Source: Patescibacteria group bacterium
Lineage (GTDB): Bacteria; Patescibacteriota; Minisyncoccia; UBA6257; 2-01-FULL-56-20
DNA length: 64,000 bases
Assembly (NCBI GenBank): GCA_024654525.1
Contig: JANLHI010000030.1
Location: 2,886-66,885 of the forward strand
Direction: 5' to 3'
Within the stretch, counting starts at the first letter, position 1. Each line of letters starts with the position of its first letter. A model generated the notes under the pieces. The model did not search any database. It was given only the letters and a program-made list of their open reading frames with translations, and had not been told where the DNA came from. The position numbers were made by a program, and so were the translations under genes. This document shows positions 2,785 to 57,270 of this stretch, piece after piece.

Positions 2785-4062
2785 ATGCCTGCACAAAAAC
2801 TTTCATGGAGGAACGAAGTGCGTCGGGTTTCGGATCTCGTGCCGAATCCGAAAAACCCTCGTTCCATCTCGCCGAAGCAGATGGAGGACTTGAAGCGCAG
2901 TCTCAAGAAATTCGGCCTGGTCGAATTGCCCGCGATAAACACTAACAACAGAATCTTGGCCGGACACCAACGCCTCCTCGCGCTCCAACTCCTCGGACGC
3001 GGTGACGAAAAGATTCCCGTTCGCGTGCCAACGCGCCCGCTCACAAAGAAGGAATACGATCAATATCTTCTGACCAGTAACCGCGTCCACGGTGAATGGG
3101 ATTATCAAATGCTCGCCGAGCAATTCGATGTCGAAATGCTCCTCGCCTCAGGCTTTGACGACGGGGATCTCTCGGTTATTTTCGACGATCTTCAAGTGGA
3201 AGACGACGAATTCGATCCGGAAAAAGAATTAAAGAAGATAAAGAAAACGGATGTGAAGCCGGGAAGTCTCTACCAACTGGGACCGCACCGTATTCTTTGT
3301 GGCGACAGCACCAATTCCGAAGTCGTCAAGAAACTCATGGGCGGCAAGAGTGCGGCGGTCATTCTCCAAGATCCCCCGTACAACATCGGTCTCAGCTATA
3401 ACAAAGGCATCGGCGGGAAAGGTAATTACGGCGGTGAAACGAACGACGCGAAGTCAGACGAAGAATATGAATCATTTCTCCGCAAAGCCCTTGCGAATGG
3501 CGTCGACGCCTGCGAGAAGGACGCACACGTGTTCACATACCACGATCCCCGCTACACCTGGCTTTTGCAAAAACTTTACAAAGAGCTGGGCATCGCGTAC
3601 AAGCGGACGTGTTTGTGGGTAAAAAATAATTCTACGCCCACACCTAACGTCGCCTTCAATCGCCAATATGAACCGGCGCTCTACGGCGTTATCGGGAAAC
3701 CGTATCTTTCGGAGCGATCATTCAATTTTTCCGAGATCTTAAACCGCGATGTTGGGATCGGTAATCGCACCATAGACGACATTTACGATTTGATAGACAT
3801 CTGGCTCGTAAAGCGGCTCGGCGGTTCGGAGTATGAGCATCCCACTGAAAAGCCGCCCATGCTGCACGAGCGGCCGCTGCGGCGTTGCACTAAGCCGGGA
3901 GATATCGTGCTTGATCTGTTCTCTGGTTCATCCAGTATTATGGTCGCTTGCCACGGGTTGAAGCGCATCGCGTATATGGTCGAACGCGAGCCGATTTTCG
4001 TTCAATTATCGCTAAACAGATATGCCAAACTTACGGGAGAAAAAGCAAAAAGGATCGCCTAA
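2785..4062 (+). CDS. ParB-like nuclease domain fused to an N6-adenine/N4-cytosine DNA methyltransferase (phage-type)
   Basis: N-terminal VPNPKNPR...ILAGHQRLLA matches a ParB N-terminal domain. The DPPY motif (ILQDPPYN) and C-terminal HPTEKP...DLFSGSSS (motif I) indicate a beta-class amino-MTase. Confidence 0.8.
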   Translation: MPAQKLSWRNEVRRVSDLVPNPKNPRSISPKQMEDLKRSLKKFGLVELPAINTNNRILAGHQRLLALQLLGRGDEKIPVRVPTRPLTKKEYDQYLLTSNRVHGEWDYQMLAEQFDVEMLLASGFDDGDLSVIFDDLQVEDDEFDPEKELKKIKKTDVKPGSLYQLGPHRILCGDSTNSEVVKKLMGGKSAAVILQDPPYNIGLSYNKGIGGKGNYGGETNDAKSDEEYESFLRKALANGVDACEKDAHVFTYHDPRYTWLLQKLYKELGIAYKRTCLWVKNNSTPTPNVAFNRQYEPALYGVIGKPYLSERSFNFSEILNRDVGIGNRTIDDIYDLIDIWLVKRLGGSEYEHPTEKPPMLHERPLRRCTKPGDIVLDLFSGSSSIMVACHGLKRIAYMVEREPIFVQLSLNRYAKLTGEKAKRIA

Positions 4063-15042: not shown

Positions 15043-16380
15043 ATGACCAACCAAACTACAGGGCCGGTGGGAGCTGTGGCCCAAACACAAATCCAGCTTC
15101 CCATAAAGGTCAAATACGTGCTCTATGCGAGGAAAAGCACGGAAAGCGAGGAACAGCAGATCCTTTCCATAGACAGCCAGATCAAGGAGATGCTCCAGAT
15201 GGCCGAACGTGACCATCTGGAGGTGGTAGAGATCAAGAAAGAGTCGCACTCGGCAAAGGAAGCGGGGCAACGTCCAGTGTTCAATGAGATCGTCGATGAA
15301 ATCAAAAGTGGCAAATTCAACGGAATACTTACATGGGCGGCAGACCGTATATCGAGAAACGCCGGAGACCTCGGAAGAATCGTGGACCTCATGGACAGCG
15401 GAAAGTTGATTGAGATACGCACCTACGGGCAGAAGTTCACCAACAGCCCGAACGAGAAGTTCCTCCTTATGATATTGGGCTCGCAGGCTAAGCTCGAGAA
15501 CGACAATAAGGTGGTGAATGTGAAGCGCGGGTTAAGGGCGCGATGCGAGATGGGGCTATGGCCATGCACGGCACCGACGGGATACCTGAACAGCACGATT
15601 AAGGAGAAAAGCTGCCATGTAGAAATTGATCCCCACAGGGCTCCCATGATTAAGAAGATGTTTGAGAAAGTGGCCTACGAGAACATGAGCGGGCGACGGC
15701 TTCACGCATGGCTCAAGGACGAGGCTAAGTTCCGGGTAAGGAGTGGCAAGCCGCTCACGATCAGCAATATATACATCACTCTGCGAAATACTTTCTACTA
15801 CGGCTCATTCGAATATCCGAGAGGCGGTGGGCAGTGGTATGCCGGGAAGCATATGCCCATCATCACCAAGGAACTCTTCGACAAGGTGCAGGAGAAAATG
15901 GCTAACTATGCGGTGCGCGGGGAAACAAAGGAATTCGCCTTCACGAAACTCATGACCTGCGGACTATGCGGATCTGGTATCACGGCCGATGAGAAATTCA
16001 AGAAACAACAAAATGGCAATGTACACAGGTACGTCTACTACGGTTGCTGCCGGTTCCAGGATAAGAACTGCAAATCGGGATATATGCGAGAAGAAGATCT
16101 GATCGAGCAGCTCGCAAAGCTGATGGATAAAATTGACCTCGATGAGATCGGCATGAAGGAGCGGATTAAAATTGAAATCGAACGGCACAAGAAATTCCAG
16201 TCGGGACTTTTGGGGATAAAGGAAAAGACGATCAAAGTCGGCGACATTGACGTGCGAAATTACGCGAAGTACGTGTTGCGAGACGGAACGATACTTGAGA
16301 AGCGAGAGTTGTTATCTTGCCTGCGTAGTAAGGTGACGATGGCGGAGAGAGAAGTGAAGATTGCTCAAGCTAAGACTTAA
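15043..16380 (+). CDS. Serine recombinase (resolvase N-terminal domain plus recombinase and zinc-ribbon domains)
   Basis: Catalytic region YARKSTESEEQQ...SIDSQ, ADRISRN, and a C-terminal CGLCGS...YYGCCRFQDKNC zinc ribbon. Confidence 0.8.
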   Translation: MTNQTTGPVGAVAQTQIQLPIKVKYVLYARKSTESEEQQILSIDSQIKEMLQMAERDHLEVVEIKKESHSAKEAGQRPVFNEIVDEIKSGKFNGILTWAADRISRNAGDLGRIVDLMDSGKLIEIRTYGQKFTNSPNEKFLLMILGSQAKLENDNKVVNVKRGLRARCEMGLWPCTAPTGYLNSTIKEKSCHVEIDPHRAPMIKKMFEKVAYENMSGRRLHAWLKDEAKFRVRSGKPLTISNIYITLRNTFYYGSFEYPRGGGQWYAGKHMPIITKELFDKVQEKMANYAVRGETKEFAFTKLMTCGLCGSGITADEKFKKQQNGNVHRYVYYGCCRFQDKNCKSGYMREEDLIEQLAKLMDKIDLDEIGMKERIKIEIERHKKFQSGLLGIKEKTIKVGDIDVRNYAKYVLRDGTILEKRELLSCLRSKVTMAEREVKIAQAKT

Positions 16381-17997: not shown

Positions 17998-18069
17998 TGC
18001 CCTCGAGAGGAATCGAACCTCTATCTTCACGTTAGGAGTGTGAAGCTCTATCCATTGAGCTACGAGGGC
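17998..18069 (-). tRNA. tRNA-Arg(CCT)
   Basis: Cloverleaf folded by hand: acceptor GCCCTCG/CGAGGGC, anticodon loop CTCCTAA, T-arm AGAGG-TTCGATT-CCTCT. Its 3' end faces the island. Confidence 0.75.
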
Positions 18070-24293: not shown

Positions 24294-24322
24294 TACTGGA
24301 TATTTGAAAGAAATTTATAGAA

Positions 24323-24796
24323 ATGAAAAAGAAAAATTCCAGTGTCAAATGTCAAATTTCAAATATGAGAGCGGGATTTACACTCCTTGAAATGCTCCTT
24401 TCTCTTTCGGCAATCACGCTTATCGCGGGAATCGGCGTTCCGGTGTATCAGTCATTTCAAAACAGGAATAATTTAGATATCGCGGCGACTACTGTGGTGC
24501 AAAACATGCGTCGCGCGCAAGTTCTTTCACACGCGGTTGATGGTGATACAAGTTGGGGGGTAAAGGCGCAATCGGGGAGCATTGTAATGTTCAAGGGAGC
24601 GAGTTATGTCGCGCGCGATGCTGATTTTGACGAGGTATTCGAAGTACCGACAAATATGACCGTATCCGGAATAGGGGAATATGTTTTTACAAAATTTACG
24701 GGATTGCCCGCAAGTGTGGGTACCACGACGCTTATGTCGGTGAATAATGAAACGAGAACAATTACCATTAATGCAAAAGGCACCATTGAATACTGA
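24323..24796 (+). CDS. Type IV pilin-like protein (prepilin)
   Basis: Leader followed by G|FTLLEML, an N-terminal methylation motif, and a hydrophobic helix. Confidence 0.7.
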   Translation: MKKKNSSVKCQISNMRAGFTLLEMLLSLSAITLIAGIGVPVYQSFQNRNNLDIAATTVVQNMRRAQVLSHAVDGDTSWGVKAQSGSIVMFKGASYVARDADFDEVFEVPTNMTVSGIGEYVFTKFTGLPASVGTTTLMSVNNETRTITINAKGTIEY

Positions 24797-24798
24797 AT

Positions 24799-25788
24799 AT
24801 GGAATGTGGAATATTGAATATGGATAACGAAAAAATAAAATCATACAAAGATCTTAACACCTGGAAAAATGGGCATGAATTGGTTTTGCAGATATATAAA
24901 ATAACAAAAAAATTTCCAAAAGAGGAGCAATTCGGACTTGTATCACAAATTTGCAGAGCCGCTGTATCTATAACATCAAATATCGCAGAAGGTTTTAGTA
25001 GGAGACTTCCCAAAGATAAAGCACATTTTTATTCAATGGCGAAAGGATCTCTTACAGAAGTAGACAATCAAATCCTTATTGCAAAAGATGTAGGATACAT
25101 TAATGATAGCGATTTTAATAAAATAGGTAGTCAGATAGAGATTGTTGGAAGATTGCTAACGGGGCTTTTAAAGGTAACTCAACATTCAAAATTCAACATT
25201 CAAAATTCATCGCAACAGGGCTTTTCGTTGGTAGAAGTAATACTTGCCAGCGCTGTTTTTGTGTTGCTGGTTACCGCGTTTGTCGGCGCATATCTTTATG
25301 GGCAAGAATCCACTGCACTTGCGGGAAGCCGCGCTCGCGCCACGTTCCTTGTCGAAGAGGGATTAGAGGCGGTGCGTAATATCCGTGATTCTTCATTCGA
25401 AAATCTTATTGATGGCACTTATGGACTGGCTACTACGAGTAATCAGTGGAATCTGTCTGGTTCCAGTGATACGGTCGGTGTGTTTACGAGGCAGATTACC
25501 GTTGCTACGGTAGATGAGAACAGGAAAACGGTTTCTTGTTCGGTTTCATGGCAACAAAATCCACAACGAAATGGTTCAGTATCTCTCACCTCGAGACTTA
25601 CAAATTGGCAAAAGAGTGCTTCGACTCCCGTTTCTTGTAATGAACACACCATACAAGAGGGATATAGTGCGGGAACATGTAGGGCAAATTCCCAGCAATG
25701 TGCAAATAATGGCGAGACGTATCTTTCCACTGGTGATGTGTATTGTACCGATGGCGCTTCTGTCGATACTTGTTGTGCATTGCCTTAA
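24799..25788 (+). CDS. Four-helix-bundle protein (23S rRNA IVS-type, ~118 aa) fused in frame to a type IV prepilin
   Basis: The N-terminus MDNEKIKSYKDLNTWKNGHELVLQIYKITKKFPKEEQFGL...NIAEGF is a 4HB signature. G|FSLVEVIL is a prepilin motif. A 14-nt tandem duplication lies at the junction. Confidence 0.55.
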   Translation: MECGILNMDNEKIKSYKDLNTWKNGHELVLQIYKITKKFPKEEQFGLVSQICRAAVSITSNIAEGFSRRLPKDKAHFYSMAKGSLTEVDNQILIAKDVGYINDSDFNKIGSQIEIVGRLLTGLLKVTQHSKFNIQNSSQQGFSLVEVILASAVFVLLVTAFVGAYLYGQESTALAGSRARATFLVEEGLEAVRNIRDSSFENLIDGTYGLATTSNQWNLSGSSDTVGVFTRQITVATVDENRKTVSCSVSWQQNPQRNGSVSLTSRLTNWQKSASTPVSCNEHTIQEGYSAGTCRANSQQCANNGETYLSTGDVYCTDGASVDTCCALP

Positions 25789-25800
25789 TTTCGAAATTTT

Positions 25801-26325
25801 ATGTATCTGATTCCAATCCAAAATTCCCGGAAAGGATTTACTCTGATAGAGCTTTTGCTTTACGTTGCCGTTGCGTCCGTATTACTTTCCGCTATCTCCA
25901 CCTTCTTTTTTATTTTGCTTGAATCAAGAGTAAAGAATCAAACAATCGCCGAAGTGGAACAGCAGGGGATGCGCGTGATGCAAATGATTACACGAGCATC
26001 TCGGAATGCCGAGGCGATTACTTCACCCTCTCAAGGAGCTAGTGCTGCTTCTCTCATATTGGATGTGATAACTGTAGCGGATGACCCTACTGTTTTCGAT
26101 CTTTCCGGAGGAGTTCTTCGCATTAAAGAGGGGTCCGGTTCAGTAATTCCACTTACCAATTCGCGCGTTACCGCTTCTTCACTTTCTTTTTTCAATCTTT
26201 CTCGTGCGAGTACTCCGGGCGCTATTAGTATTCAATTCACACTTACCCACGCAAATCCTGCGGGGAGAAATGAGTATAATTTTAGTGAAACATTCTATGG
26301 AAGTGCATCGCTTCGGCAACCATAA
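25801..26325 (+). CDS. Type IV pilin-like protein
   Basis: Leader MYLIPIQNSRK followed by G|FTLIELL. Confidence 0.65.
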   Translation: MYLIPIQNSRKGFTLIELLLYVAVASVLLSAISTFFFILLESRVKNQTIAEVEQQGMRVMQMITRASRNAEAITSPSQGASAASLILDVITVADDPTVFDLSGGVLRIKEGSGSVIPLTNSRVTASSLSFFNLSRASTPGAISIQFTLTHANPAGRNEYNFSETFYGSASLRQP

Positions 26326-26380
26326 GATAAAATTTTGAATTCCAAACTTATTATTCAATTATCTCAATCTACTCATAGCC

Positions 26381-26803
26381 ATGTTTCAATCTACTTACTA
26401 CAAAGTTTTTATTAGGCATCGTCAGGGTTATATTACCCTTATAAGTGTTTTGGTGGTTGGCGCTGTTGGAATCGCAATTACCATTTCACTTATTTTACTC
26501 GGATTGAGTTCTTCACGCACAAGCTTTGCAGTGGAACAGTCTAATCAAGCCAAGGCGCTTGTAAATGCGTGCGTTGAAGAAGGAATGCAGCAGATTCGAG
26601 ATGCCACATCATTTACGGGCAGTGGGAGTTTGACTCTCGGTCAGGGGGTATGCAGTTATACGGTGACGAGTCAAGGAGGGCAGAATCGTACTATCGTTGC
26701 GTCGAGTACGGTGGGTACCATTATCCGCAAGACAAAAGTAATCATTGATAAAATTAACCCCACTATTCAGGTTGTCTCGTGGCAGGAAGTAAGTGATTTC
26801 TAG
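26381..26803 (+). CDS. Minor pilin/pseudopilin-like protein
   Basis: Hydrophobic N-terminus GYITLISVLVVGAV with no Glu at position +5. Confidence 0.4.
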   Translation: MFQSTYYKVFIRHRQGYITLISVLVVGAVGIAITISLILLGLSSSRTSFAVEQSNQAKALVNACVEEGMQQIRDATSFTGSGSLTLGQGVCSYTVTSQGGQNRTIVASSTVGTIIRKTKVIIDKINPTIQVVSWQEVSDF

Positions 26804-43319: not shown

Positions 43320-43377
43320 CGCGCTATAAAATATGAATCATGCGTAATTCTTAATTCGTTATTCATAATCCAAACAC

Positions 43378-44810: not shown

Positions 44811-45698
44811 ATGCATATTCCTGTTCTTTTAGAAGAAATTGTACAAATTCTTAAATGTGAGCCCGGAGACTTTTTCATCGATGGCACGATAAACGGAGGG
44901 GGGCATGCGGATGTCGTTCTTCAGAAAATCGGGGTACAGGGGAAGTTACTGGGAATTGACTGGGACGAACAGGTGCTTGCAAAGGGGAGGGCACGGATAG
45001 GATCGAACGGTAATGTAATTCTTGTGCACGGGAATTATGCGGATATTCCCAAAATTCTCGAGGATAACAGATTGCCAAAGGCGGACGCATTGCTTCTTGA
45101 TCTCGGGTTTTCTTCCGAACAAATGAATACATCGGGGAAAGGATTCAGTTTTTCGAGTGATGAACCTCTTGTGATGACGTATGACGCTGACAGTGAATCG
45201 GTAGCGGATATCTTACGGCGAATAGACGAGAAAGAGCTTGTCCGTGTAATTCGGGATTACGGAGAAGAGAGATATGCGCCGGAGATTGCACATGCGATTG
45301 TGCGTCATGAGAAAAAGTCGCCGATCACTTCTTCTTCCGAGCTTGCAGAAATTATACGTGGTGCGGTGTCTCCCGGATATGAAAGAGGGAGAATACATCC
45401 CGCAACGAGGACATTCCAGGCACTCCGTATTTATGCAAATAAAGAACTTGAGAATCTTCAATGTGTGATTCGAGAATTGCCGAATATAGTGCGTGTAGGC
45501 GGGCGTGCGGTAATTATTTCCTTCCATTCGCTTGAAGACAGGATAGTGAAGAATATGTTTCGGGACATGGCGAAAGAGGGGAAATTCTCGATTCTCACAA
45601 AAAAAGCGTTGGTTGCTTCTCATAAAGAGATTTCACGGAATCCTCGAAGCCGATCGGCAAAAATGAGAGCAGTGGAAATATGCGTAAATGACGAATAA
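44811..45698 (+). CDS. rsmH: 16S rRNA (cytosine1402-N4)-methyltransferase
   Basis: MHIPVLLEE...DGTINGGGHA and DLGFSS motifs. Confidence 0.85.
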   Translation: MHIPVLLEEIVQILKCEPGDFFIDGTINGGGHADVVLQKIGVQGKLLGIDWDEQVLAKGRARIGSNGNVILVHGNYADIPKILEDNRLPKADALLLDLGFSSEQMNTSGKGFSFSSDEPLVMTYDADSESVADILRRIDEKELVRVIRDYGEERYAPEIAHAIVRHEKKSPITSSSELAEIIRGAVSPGYERGRIHPATRTFQALRIYANKELENLQCVIRELPNIVRVGGRAVIISFHSLEDRIVKNMFRDMAKEGKFSILTKKALVASHKEISRNPRSRSAKMRAVEICVNDE

Positions 45699-45775
45699 GA
45701 AATTACGAATTATGGATAAGCTCATATTTAAATTCTTTTATTCCTAATTCCTAATTTTTAATTCAAAACCATACT

Positions 45776-54576: not shown

Positions 54577-57270
54577 TTGTCTTCGGGGTATAGTTCTCAC
54601 GCAGTAATTACCCTCTCTATGCTTGGATTTGTTAAAAATATCTTCCATGGGAAGAAGGTTGATGTGCTTCGCAAACGTGCGGAGGAAATTGGCGCGCTTG
54701 AGCCGGAAATACAACAACTTTCGGATGAAGCGATTCGAGAAGAGAGCGCTAAATTAAAGGAATCCGTAAAAAATGGAATTTCGCTTGACGATATATTACC
54801 TCGTGCTTTTGCATTAGTGCGCGAAGCCGCGCGCCGAACATTGGGACAACGTCCCTACGATGTGCAGCTTATAGGAGGAATCGTGCTTCATGAGGGTGGT
54901 ATTGCCGAGATGATGACCGGTGAAGGAAAAACACTTGCGGGAGTAGCGCCTGCATATTTAAATACGCTTGCAGGAAATGGTGTGCATGTCGTGACGGTGA
55001 ACGAGTATTTGGCGAGACGTGATGCGGTATGGATGGGGCAGATTTATCGTGCATTGGGTCTTTCGGTGGCGTGTCTTGTGCCGAATACCGCATATCTTTA
55101 CGATCCCGATTACAAGGCTCCGGAGGAATCTGTAAAATCAGGGAGTGAAGAGACGAAAATCGGAGAATCGGCATTACTGGATAAGGAGCGTGATATTACG
55201 GGGAGTTTTCTGGTACAACAGGAATTTCTCCGTCCTATTTCCCGCAGAGAAGCGTATCTTGCGGATATCACGTATGGCACGAATCACGAATTCGGATTTG
55301 ACTATTTACGAGATAATCTTGCGCATGGATTATTCGATCAGGTGCAGTCTGCGCGTGGAGGATATAATTTTGCGATTATTGACGAAGTGGATAGTATTTT
55401 GATAGATGAGGCGCGAACGCCTCTTATTATCGCTGCGCCGGATTCGGAATCGAGTGAATTTTATAAAACATTTGCGCGTATAGTACGTGACTTACAGCCC
55501 GAAACTCATTATACAGTTGATGAAAAATTTAAAGCGGTAAGCATTACTAATGATGGTATAGAGAAGGTGGAATCGCTTGTGGGTATACAGGATTTATATG
55601 CACCTCAAAATCTTCGTTTAGTGCATTATCTTGAGGAAAGCTTGAAGGCAAAGGCATTGTTTCATCGCGATAAAGAATATGTGGTAAAAAACGGGGAAAT
55701 TATTCTTGTGGACGAATTTACGGGGCGTCTTTTGCAAGGGAGGCGTTACAGTGCGGGGCTCCATCAGGCAATCGAGGCGAAAGAGGGAGTCACGGTACAG
55801 CAGGAGTCAAAGACATATGCGCGTGTTTCGATTCAAAACTATTTCCGGCTTTACCGCAAACTTGCGGGTATGACTGGGACGGCACAGACTTCCGCGGAAG
55901 AATTTCATAAGGTGTACGGTATGGAAGTGATAAGTATCCCTCCGAATAAGCCGTGTACTCGAAAAGATGCGGGAGATTTGATTTATAAAACCGCGTTGGC
56001 AAAATGGGAAGCGGTTGCGCGAGATGTAAAATCAGCGCATGAAAAAGGACAACCGGTGTTGGTGGGAACTACCTCTATCTCGAAAAATGAATTACTCTCG
56101 GCGTTATTACATAAGCATCACGTACCGCATGAAGTATTGAATGCAAAAAACAACGAGCGGGAAGGTGCGATTATTGCGCAGGCGGGACGGTGGGGCGCGG
56201 TGACGGTGGCAACAAACATGGCGGGGCGCGGTGTGGATATTATTCTTGGGGGTAATCCGTTTAGCGCCGATGATGCAAAGAAAGTGTGTGAGGCGGGTGG
56301 GCTTGGAGTTATCGGAACCGAACGGCACGAAGCGCGCCGTATAGATAATCAGCTTCGTGGACGTGCGGGGCGTCAAGGAGACCCGGGTTTTTCGCAGTTC
56401 TATCTTTCACTCGAAGATGATCTTATGCGCATATTTGGTGGAAGCATGATTAAGGGAATTATGGATAAGTTTGATCTTCCTGATGACCAGCCGATTGAGG
56501 CGGGGATTGTGTCAAAAGCGGTTGCGCAAGCGCAGTCGAAAGTGGAAGGCGCCACGTTTGATATGCGAAAGCACTTATTGGAATACGATGATGTGTTAAA
56601 CAAACAACGAACGGCGGTGTATCGGCGTCGACAGGAAATTCTAGAAAGCATGAATAAAGGTGAATTGAGTCGGTTGGTGTTTGAGGCAGCTGAGGGACAT
56701 ACTAAAATGATTGTTCCGCAAGGATTTGCGGAAGAGGCCGAGTTTTCTGATGAGGTGAAGGAAATGTTAAAAAAAGGATTCGAGGAAGCGGGAATTATTG
56801 CGACGAACGATGAATTACGTATTACGAATTACGCTGGGATTAAGGATATTATCTCGAAACGTAGTATTGAAGCATCGGCAGACCCGCAAACTTTTTCACG
56901 TGCATTGAGTATTTTGGATATGCTTTGGATGAGTCATCTTGAAGATCTTGATGCGCTTTCAGAATCTGTTGGTCTTCGTGCATATGGTCAGCGCGATCCG
57001 CTTGTGGAATATCGGCAAGAGGCGCATCGGCTTTTCACTAACTTTTGGGTAAACTTCAATGCGTGGATATTTTTAAATATTTTTAAATTGGCGAATCCAG
57101 TGGACGGTACCCGAAAGGTAGTCGATAATGAGGCAGTGCAGAGCCAACTTTCTAGAATCGGGCTATCTCCCGGATCTTTCGCGAATGTAGGACGCAACGA
57201 TCCATGTCCGTGCGGGGCGAAACATGCTGACGGACGACCGATGAAATATAAGCATTGTCATGGGGCGTAG
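54577..57270 (+). CDS. secA: Preprotein translocase ATPase SecA
   Basis: DEAD-like motor motifs and a C-terminal zinc finger CPCGAKHADGRPMKYKHCHG. Confidence 0.9.
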   Translation: MSSGYSSHAVITLSMLGFVKNIFHGKKVDVLRKRAEEIGALEPEIQQLSDEAIREESAKLKESVKNGISLDDILPRAFALVREAARRTLGQRPYDVQLIGGIVLHEGGIAEMMTGEGKTLAGVAPAYLNTLAGNGVHVVTVNEYLARRDAVWMGQIYRALGLSVACLVPNTAYLYDPDYKAPEESVKSGSEETKIGESALLDKERDITGSFLVQQEFLRPISRREAYLADITYGTNHEFGFDYLRDNLAHGLFDQVQSARGGYNFAIIDEVDSILIDEARTPLIIAAPDSESSEFYKTFARIVRDLQPETHYTVDEKFKAVSITNDGIEKVESLVGIQDLYAPQNLRLVHYLEESLKAKALFHRDKEYVVKNGEIILVDEFTGRLLQGRRYSAGLHQAIEAKEGVTVQQESKTYARVSIQNYFRLYRKLAGMTGTAQTSAEEFHKVYGMEVISIPPNKPCTRKDAGDLIYKTALAKWEAVARDVKSAHEKGQPVLVGTTSISKNELLSALLHKHHVPHEVLNAKNNEREGAIIAQAGRWGAVTVATNMAGRGVDIILGGNPFSADDAKKVCEAGGLGVIGTERHEARRIDNQLRGRAGRQGDPGFSQFYLSLEDDLMRIFGGSMIKGIMDKFDLPDDQPIEAGIVSKAVAQAQSKVEGATFDMRKHLLEYDDVLNKQRTAVYRRRQEILESMNKGELSRLVFEAAEGHTKMIVPQGFAEEAEFSDEVKEMLKKGFEEAGIIATNDELRITNYAGIKDIISKRSIEASADPQTFSRALSILDMLWMSHLEDLDALSESVGLRAYGQRDPLVEYRQEAHRLFTNFWVNFNAWIFLNIFKLANPVDGTRKVVDNEAVQSQLSRIGLSPGSFANVGRNDPCPCGAKHADGRPMKYKHCHGA

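Follow-up and report, generated by a model that had tools for sequence, protein, structure and literature searches.

How is a minor pilin made when its coding region has no start codon of its own and is entered, in frame, from the gene of a four-helix-bundle (4HB) protein? This question is raised by a 329-residue open reading frame (ORF) at positions 24799–25788 of the stretch studied here, a 64,000-nucleotide segment of contig JANLHI010000030.1 from an ultrasmall Patescibacteria group bacterium (assembly GCA_024654525.1), hereafter the window. The first-pass annotation had described the ORF as a 4HB protein joined to a prepilin through a perfect 14-nucleotide tandem, and had attributed this either to a recent slipped-strand duplication that silenced the pilin or to a phase-variation switch. 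The ORF is present as described, with both of its domains detected by Pfam and the perfect tandem by Tandem Repeats Finder (TRF). The best explanation, which we hold to be somewhat probable from the sequence comparisons, is that a cassette resembling the ORF-bearing intervening sequences (IVSs) of rRNA genes lies in the leader-coding region of the pilin gene, and that the pilin would be released from a 4HB–leader–pilin precursor by a processing step that we infer.

Two modules, the first bracketed by inverted heptamer arrays

The first module of the ORF matched PF05635 (23S_rRNA_IVP) at residues 17–122 (E 1.4e-37). With 128.6 bits vs. a cut-off of 33.8 and coverage of profile positions 1–106 of 106, it belongs to the PF05635/TIGR02436 family at full length and is, as previously proposed, a typical standalone-type protein. 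This part also matched the PDB entry 2GSC (XCC0516; E 1.3e-25). In an AlphaFold2 model, numbered from the ATG at 24820, helices at residues 7–30, 37–62, 67–90 and 96–125 formed a four-helix fold, with predicted local distance difference test (pLDDT) values of just 43–79 in this part, where the alignment was shallow. The chain then passed through a coil (model residues 126–136) into the long α1 helix of the pilin and a confident β domain, i.e., a modular arrangement. The mature pilin scored mostly 86–96 per 10-residue block, with dips to 61–79.

The second module carries the N_methyl prepilin motif (PF07963) at residues 137–160 (22.0 bits vs. a cut-off of 21.2), and the features of a class III signal peptide were all found, namely Gly at −1, a hydrophobic α1 and Glu at +5. 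In an alignment of 40 pilin homologues, G-F-S-L-V-E was nearly invariant. Approximately 840 homologues of the pilin part were detected, mostly standalone proteins of about 200 residues. Mean identity to them was 0.64, which is mid-range, and the window pilin was no more divergent than the standalone homologues and retained the nearly invariant residues and the cysteines. The claim that the pilin had been silenced is thus not borne out, as its ORF is intact and has diverged like those of standalone homologues. By contrast, the statement that the 4HB frame enters the prepilin without a start codon was confirmed: no canonical start that could open a short hydrophilic leader of the pilin's own was found between the 4HB domain and Gly141, and the only in-frame canonical starts between codon 60 and Gly141 were ATG at codon 80 and TTG at codon 119 (25153), both within the 4HB domain. 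A tblastn search of the window revealed no second 4HB gene. The public annotation of P0001 (NCBI MCR4328494.1, 322 residues) reads "four helix bundle protein" only.

With regard to the junction, TRF reported positions 25179–25209 as a period-14 repeat of 2.2 copies with 100% matches and a score of 62, the highest in the window, and alternatively as a TCAAAAT heptamer array of 4.4 units. This right array encodes the linker QHSKFNIQNS and has no stop codon in any of the three frames. A left array was also detected by TRF (GAATATG, period 7, 4.3 units, 24795–24824; 5.0 units when counted with a lag-7 script), directly 3′ of the stop codon of the upstream pilin gene (TGA, 24794–24796), and both candidate start codons of the 4HB gene, at 24799 and 24820, lie within it. 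A genetic code in which UGA is read as Gly was considered for this stop codon and rejected, since the upstream pilin has homologues in which a TAA terminates the gene at this very position.

The two arrays form an inverted repeat (I1) with 31-nucleotide arms that are 81% complementary, lie 354 nucleotides apart and enclose the ORF. Mismatches between the arms are confined to three variable positions per unit, while the GAAT/ATTC cores pair throughout. The 14-bp duplication therefore corresponds to two of the four heptamers that make up the 3′ arm, the 4HB ORF being enclosed by the structure as a whole. The first-pass annotation was right about the perfect tandem at the junction, but it had overlooked that this tandem belongs to a 4.4-unit heptamer array with an inverted partner at 24794–24824.

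A probable cassette in the leader-coding region of the pilin gene

In order to place this anatomy in a family context, one genome per species was scanned with the 4HB part, which yielded 80 loci with 84 4HB genes (55–65% identity), almost all in metagenome-assembled genomes of Patescibacteria. Inverted heptamer arrays flanked approximately 79 of the 84 genes, usually GAATNNN or GTATNNN on the 5′ side and the complement on the 3′ side, and did so regardless of the type of gene downstream. The median was about 4 units per arm, so that the 5.0 and 4.4 units of the window are typical. Complementarity between the two flanks of the same gene averaged 15.1, compared to 8.3 when the two flanks came from different loci and 6.8 when flanks were shuffled (p ~1e-28). 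Own arms also exceeded other-locus arms when only arms of the same flavour were compared (18.3 vs. 11.3 for GAAT, p 1e-8; 17.4 vs. 11.5 for GTAT, p 2e-6), which indicates that the variable positions of both arms co-vary within a locus. The cassettes are tightly packed in operons: co-directional upstream ORFs end at a median of about 31 nucleotides before the 4HB start, and co-directional downstream ORFs start at a median of about 20 nucleotides past the 4HB stop. Related 4HB ORFs normally stop 3–13 codons beyond the domain, within the right arm. The common GAATTAT-type arms contain TAA or TGA, whereas the right arm of the window is free of stop codons, and it is for this reason that the frame reads through into the pilin.

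The position of the insertion was apparent from cassette-free orthologues. At most orthologous loci, the ATG of the PilV-like pilin lies inside the 3′ end of the upstream pilin gene in the +1 frame and reads MKREPLQSMRKAWLTTNQKG|FSLVEV. The corresponding ATG is retained in the window at 24747, where it reads MKREQLPLMQKAPLNTEYGMWNIEYG* and meets a stop within the left arm. Deleting approximately 415–418 nucleotides (24794/24797–25211) would restore an ordinary leader, ...PLNT(E)QQG|FSLVEV, which places the cassette within the leader-coding region. As part of the explanation that we favor, and with the same modest probability, the 4HB ORF and its two flanking arrays make up one IVS-type unit of about 415 nucleotides (roughly 24797–25211).

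Comparison of the sequences indicates that other lineages hold independent cassettes at the same pilin site. The L099 cassette occupies this site with a 4HB gene 58% identical to that of the window and with the same GAATATG/GAATGTG flavour. There, the 4HB ORF stops at TGA, the pilin has its own overlapping ATG (ttATGa) and its leader, MKKGLPYSIFHIPHSPRG, is encoded by the right arm. In L098, L114 and L119, a different 4HB subfamily (40–45% identical) with ACTACAA/AGCTTGT flavours is found at the pilin site, while the same second subfamily is found at the first pilin in L006 and L089. The 4HB proteins of this subfamily (L006, 816–840; L089, L098, L114, L119) end in a conserved C-terminus, ...MLNK(L/M)T(H/N)ELN*, and the downstream pilin starts at a conserved ATG (cATGAACTC) that lies out of frame within the final part of the 4HB gene. 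The second-subfamily cassette thus provides the start and leader of its host gene. Among pilin-adjacent cassettes, those in frame have no canonical pilin start past the 4HB domain and those out of frame come with their own ATG; L071 qualifies this pattern, with an in-frame TTG 13 codons before the Gly.

Several comparisons indicate that the 4HB ORF and its heptamer arms apparently move as one unit. Firstly, L014 shares 87–90% nucleotide identity with L010 and L011 over just ~390 nucleotides, i.e., the ORF plus arms, and neither blastn nor tblastx detected similarity between their flanks. The unit composition of the arrays differs among these three cassettes. Secondly, L097 and L098 are 90% identical over the orthologous pilin and downstream DNA, and the L098 cassette stands where L097 has 7 nucleotides; the upstream stop codon and the Gly(−1) codon are the exact limits of this interval. 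Finally, L087 and L089 differ by presence or absence of a cassette at the junction of PilC and the first pilin, again between the upstream stop and the Gly(−1) codon. ORF-less heptamer-array hairpins occupy the same pilin site in L002, L089 and L101/L103.

Additional arrays were observed in the related loci and in the window. L014 has a second inverted pair of GTAT-flavour arrays at 2869–3032, ~1.4 kb downstream of its cassette, and L011 has a small extra hairpin at ~2295–2330, nested in the right arm. Within the window, an ORF-less GAAT-type heptamer hairpin lies at 45691–45771 (GACGAATAAGAAATTACGAATTATGGATAAG ... ATTCTTTTATTCCTAATTCCTAATTTTTAATTC) between two co-directional genes (ΔG −15.1). 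It still opens with ATGGATAAG, compared to ATGGATAAC at the 4HB start, and from this likeness it seems to have arisen from a 4HB cassette by deletion. A shorter and weaker hairpin of ATTCNNN units (atatgaatcatgcgtaattcttaattcgttattcataat) at 43330–43372, in the gap between two ABC-ATPase genes, was not significant (z −0.7). A period-7 run at 56812–56834 lies inside a large ORF and was judged a coincidence.

The pairing of the arms also bears on a different reading, in which the element acts at the RNA level: the arms would pair in the operon transcript, RNase III would cut the stem and separate the 4HB and pilin messages, and cleavage would tune pilin stoichiometry, the in-frame state being incidental. 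In line with this, the arms joined via a GAAA loop folded at −17.6 kcal/mol (z −3.7), which none of 200 shuffles equalled, arm complementarity co-varies within loci, the ORF-less hairpin of the same flavour at 45691–45771 has a z of −3.5, and the Coxiella IVS, whose stem is cleaved by RNase III, offers a precedent. However, cleavage within the arms would leave the pilin coding region without a start codon, only about half of the variable positions in the window arms are complementary, and co-variation is expected from concerted evolution of the two arms as much as from selection for pairing. We therefore consider an RNA-level role as the main account of the locus very unlikely.

Age of the fusion and release of the pilin

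A homologue of the fused protein, P0002, came from a different sample (SRR3989338) and is 79% identical over 250 residues, with ~85% identity for the 4HB and ~75% for the pilin. The P0002 junction, TQYSKFNIQNSQQG|FSLVEII, compares with TQHSKFNIQNSSQQG|FSLVEVI in the window and has an equal number of heptamer-coded residues, from which its unit number was read. In-frame fusions were also found in other classes and with non-orthologous pilins, joined via ATTCAAA or ATTCCAA arrays: ...DIQNSKFKIQNSNSG|FTLLEL in L017 (Paceibacterota) and ...LPNSKFQIPNSTKG|FTVIEL in L071 (Wolfebacteria). A word-index protein search with the junction query returned pilin N-termini only and missed both P0001 and P0002. 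An exhaustive HMMER search with the same kind of query against 1.84 billion cluster representatives revealed at least eight further fusion clusters (P0145, P0169, P0210, P0243, P0253, P0255, P0262 and P0279), whose linkers look heptamer-coded (NSKFQIPNS, NSKSYILNS). PF05635 was detected in all eight; N_methyl exceeded its cut-off in P0145, P0210, P0243 and P0253 only, and in P0169, P0255, P0262 and P0279 the prepilin N-terminus was identified by eye. Natural 4HB–pilin fusions in other genomes, which the first-pass annotation had named among the findings that would refute its reading, do exist (L017, L071 and the eight or more clusters); they carry the repeat, since it is part of the cassette. 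In two further cases, P0150 (170 residues) and P0176 (811 residues), a 4HB is fused in frame to a non-pilin protein with an N-terminal hydrophobic membrane segment, which in P0176 continues into three LamG/concanavalin-like domains. This suggests that any N-terminus acting as a cleavable or anchoring signal can tolerate such a fusion.

Judged from these alignments, the fusion is old and recurrent and not a fresh slippage accident. The perfect identity of the two 14-mers agrees with a recent slip, or an assembly error, that accidentally fused the genes and silenced the pilin. This origin is nevertheless extremely improbable. A 79% identical protein from an independent sample has the same junction and units, and the tract forms one arm of an inverted array that is found across the family and has its typical length here (~4 units). 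Moreover, the pilin ORF is intact with its cysteines and G-F-S-L-V-E conserved, and fusions recur in other lineages.

The second proposal of the first-pass annotation, a switch in which gain or loss of heptamers in the 3′ arm toggles the pilin between ON (in frame) and OFF (out of frame), agrees with the dependence of the frame on unit number that it had noted: adding or removing one or two units shifts the frame, with the ORF ending at 142–195 residues, while three units keep it. Moreover, heptamer copy number in the Coxiella IVS varies among strains (PMC4990558), and unit composition varies between the 87–90% identical cassettes. However, the array has only about four, imperfect units, P0002 has the same number despite 21% protein divergence, and the near-identical contigs (L001–L004, L101/L103) do not differ in array length, a weak test made on assembled contigs. 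In addition, arrays are found around 4HB genes whatever gene follows them, and so did not evolve as a pilin switch. Taken together, phase variation appears quite unlikely here.

According to the mechanism that we favor, insertion of the cassette between the upstream stop and the Gly(−1) codon would have cut the pilin off from ATG 24747. With a right arm of the stop-free TCAAAAT/TCAACAT flavour and a unit number that happens to preserve the frame, the 4HB gene would read into the pilin, which would then be translated as a 4HB–linker–prepilin precursor. The 4HB and linker would remain on the cytoplasmic side as an oversized leader, and a cut by prepilin peptidase at Gly141|Phe142 would yield a normal mature pilin and a free 4HB protein. 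Prepilin leaders are variable in length, are cytoplasmic and are cut on the cytoplasmic face after Gly or Ala (PMC10191384), and by analogy a 4HB–linker leader is topologically compatible with prepilin insertion. Since the leader is removed anyway, we propose that it offers a permissive landing site, which would account for the recurrence of prepilin fusions. An intact and conserved pilin, together with recurrent fusions, argues that the pilin is probably still expressed and that, when fused, it would rely on translation from the 4HB start.

A further possibility is that the fusion exists only in the reading frame and that two separate products are made, the pilin being initiated internally, at TTG 25153 (22-residue leader) or at a non-canonical ATT at 25198 (8-residue leader), or else by reinitiation. 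In that case, the 4HB would mostly be made with a useless pilin tail, or not be made. The TTG at codon 119 is indeed in frame. In P0243, P0253, P0255 and P0279, which belong to another 4HB subfamily, its place in the alignment is taken by a conserved Met that precedes the cleavage site by ~20 residues, and the in-frame TTG of L071 points in the same direction. On the other hand, L017 has no ATG, GTG or TTG within 45 codons of its cleavage site, no Shine–Dalgarno sequence at a usable spacing was found before 25153, and an in-frame ATT is guaranteed by the repeat geometry and is hence uninformative. Separate products seem unlikely, though not to the degree of a phase switch or a slippage accident, and internal initiation at TTG 25153 is a genuine competitor of the cleavage model.

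Release of the pilin from a fused precursor also has to be set against a number of observations that weigh against it. The processing of the precursor is deduced entirely from sequence, and we know of no prepilin with a leader of ~140 residues that holds a folded, probably pentamer-forming domain. No match to the prepilin peptidase family Peptidase_A24 was obtained among the 15 ORFs scanned in the 64-kb window, and the in-frame TTG at 25153 could yield a separate pilin product. Furthermore, approximately three of eight independent pilin-adjacent cassettes are in frame, which is the chance expectation, and the fold of the whole 446-nucleotide region was not significant (z −1.2). As to the IVS connection, none of 11 conserved rRNA motifs was found in the 120 loci that were fetched. 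None of the 84 related loci therefore lies in an rRNA gene, and the link to true rRNA IVSs is based on the protein family and the layout only.

Genomic setting, related systems and significance

The window (43.6% G+C) contains a type IV pilus operon on the + strand, and the features of the locus are compiled in Table 1. G|F-type prepilin N-termini were found on four ORFs of the operon (starting at 24323, 24799, 25801 and 26868), in addition to a PilX-like ORF at 26381. Only ORFs 24799 and 25801 scored above the Pfam cut-off for N_methyl; ORFs 24323 and 26868 fell slightly under it, and ORF 26381 had no Pfam match. The upstream pilin gene is syntenic with L002 and L006.

Table 1. Positions in the window of the pilus genes, arrays and modules at the fusion locus.
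Feature	Position	Strand	Basis
PilB-like ORF	start 21027	+	ORF list; identity by eye and from Pfam labels at syntenic loci
PilC-like ORF	start 22863	+	ORF list; identity by eye and from Pfam labels at syntenic loci
Upstream minor pilin gene, 157 residues	24323..24796	+	ORF list; N_methyl 19.7 bits vs. cut-off 21.2
Remnant of ancestral start and leader of the downstream pilin	24747..24827	+	Translation; same start position in orthologues lacking the cassette
Left (5′) heptamer array, GAATATG GAATGTG GAATATT GAATATG	24794..24824	+	TRF; inverted repeat I1
Four-helix-bundle module (PF05635/23S rRNA IVS protein family)	24820..25179	+	Pfam; PDB match; AlphaFold2
Right (3′) heptamer array, TCAACAT TCAAAAT x2	25179..25209	+	TRF; inverted repeat I1; frame check
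Last leader codons, SQQG; Gly141 (25219–25221) is the predicted prepilin-peptidase −1 residue	25210..25221	+	N_methyl; alignment
Mature PilV-like minor pilin, 188 residues, intact, with Cys-rich C-terminal domain and stop codon	25222..25788	+	Homologues; AlphaFold2

The leaders of neighboring pilin genes have some repeat character of their own. At 24299–24367, an array of three TGTCAAA units, which has a partial inverted partner 5′ of the ATG, encodes the first pilin's leader (MKKKNSSVKCQISNMRAG); the fold of this region was not significant, and the leader in L005 has the same GTCAAAT flavour. The leaders of the next two pilin-like genes (25788–25840 and 26340–26410) also appear repeat-derived. 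In the former, MYLIPIQNSRKG is encoded by an ATTCCAA-like tract 3′ of the palindrome AATTTCGAAATT. In the latter, the PilX-like ORF starts within a 22-nucleotide tandem that contains CTACTTACTACAAA, which resembles the ACTACAA arm flavour of L006 and L098. Elsewhere in the window, a large serine recombinase gene (Resolvase, Recombinase and zinc-ribbon domains; 15043–16380, + strand) lies ~1.6 kb from a tRNA gene (17998–18069, − strand) and is followed by two ORFs without a Pfam match, which may represent an integrated element.

The closest known counterparts are the ORF-bearing 23S rRNA IVSs of Coxiella burnetii (S23p) and also Leptospira, in which terminal inverted repeats form a stem and an ORF of the same PF05635 family occupies the loop. 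In Coxiella, the terminal stem of the IVS measures 28 bp and RNase III cuts at the first repeat; 2–3 tandem GACAGAT heptamers, in strain-dependent number, directly precede the S23p ATG (PMC4990558). In the window cassette, too, the 5′ arm has tandem heptamers immediately ahead of the ORF, and the two elements are similar in size (428 vs. ~415 nucleotides). Elements of the Coxiella type and the window cassette also share the long-held suspicion of being selfish or mobile (PMC4990558). Unlike an rRNA IVS, the window cassette lies between protein-coding genes, inside a prepilin leader, and is translationally fused to its host gene. Rfam detected only tRNAs in the window, and the cassette, placed between pilin genes, is not located in an rRNA helix. 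The Coxiella ORF is decaying, whereas the 4HB ORF of the window is apparently under purifying selection, as judged from protein identity only. Members of the PF05635 family have been reported in 16S and 23S insertions of Candidate Phyla Radiation bacteria (PMC11270868) and scattered in cas operons (PMC3936711).

XCC0516, the protein matched in 2GSC, and the bAvd protein of diversity-generating retroelements (DGRs) are pentameric four-helix bundles (PMC4990558, PMC10053308), and the 4HB part matched the bAvd-like profile PF22296 weakly. In contrast to a DGR, neither a reverse transcriptase nor template/variable repeats lie nearby and the flanking genes are pilins. An Avd protein of a DGR was rejected on these neighbors and on a bAvd score of 29 bits vs. 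a cut-off of 40. An intein or self-splicing intron was likewise rejected, as Pfam matched only PF05635, bAvd and N_methyl, and Rfam detected no intron at the gathering threshold.

With long-leader type IV prepilins, such as those of the type IVb class and the major pilins of Streptococcus sanguinis, the window protein shares Gly at −1, Phe at +1, Glu at +5 and predicted removal of the leader. To our knowledge, however, long prepilin leaders known so far are unstructured and comprise tens of residues, while the window "leader" has 141 residues (134 from ATG 24820) and contains a folded domain of foreign origin.

Correia/NEMIS elements of Neisseria are small inverted-repeat elements between co-directional genes, whose hairpins can be RNase III targets. 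The hairpin at 45691–45771 resembles this type; the full-length cassette differs by carrying a 4HB gene, and its arms are arrays of locus-variable 7-nucleotide units as opposed to a fixed terminal repeat. Contingency loci, e.g., the 7-bp repeats at Haemophilus hmw promoters, offer another comparison: here too, tandem 7-nucleotide units separate the start codon from the body of a gene for a surface structure, and their number sets the frame. The window tract differs in being short and made of imperfect units, and its unit number, which is maintained in a diverged relative, showed no polymorphism.

What appears to be undescribed is the evidently mobile form embedded in operons, together with its recurrent in-frame fusion to prepilins; the protein family itself and the architecture of rRNA IVSs are known. 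In the literature that we covered, which was incomplete so that an earlier description is possible, we found neither inverted heptamer arms outside rRNA nor 4HB–pilin fusions; nor did this incomplete coverage contain a link between the heptamers of 4HB cassettes and the short tandemly repeated repetitive (STRR) heptamers of cyanobacteria.

As a tentative generalization, which may well not hold in full, PF05635 cassettes with inverted heptamer arrays could form a large undescribed family of small mobile elements in Patescibacteria operons, of which ORF-bearing rRNA IVSs would be a special case. The arrays would serve as adaptors that are neutral to the reading frame: the left one would be rich in ATG, and the right one either rich in stops or open throughout. 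Insertion would preferentially occur in cleavable class III signal peptides, which would be safe harbours for the element. The protein of the element would be made as a prepilin "leader" and freed by prepilin peptidase, its expression being tied to pilus biogenesis, and the roughly pentameric 4HB may recognize the heptamer flavour, given ~4–5 units per arm.

The origin, mobility and function of the rRNA IVS ORF have been in question since the early 1990s, and this locus and its relatives provide direct comparative evidence that the 4HB ORF moves together with its heptamer arms. They point to an unusual compromise between host and element, in which insertion into a leader that is cleaved off anyway would give rise to conserved chimeric precursors. 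Because the fused protein is annotated as a four helix bundle protein, its pilin half is invisible to annotation-based surveys of Patescibacteria pili. Since type IV pili have been proposed as mediators of episymbiosis in Patescibacteria, a rewiring of pilin expression of the kind suggested here would matter for the biology of these organisms.

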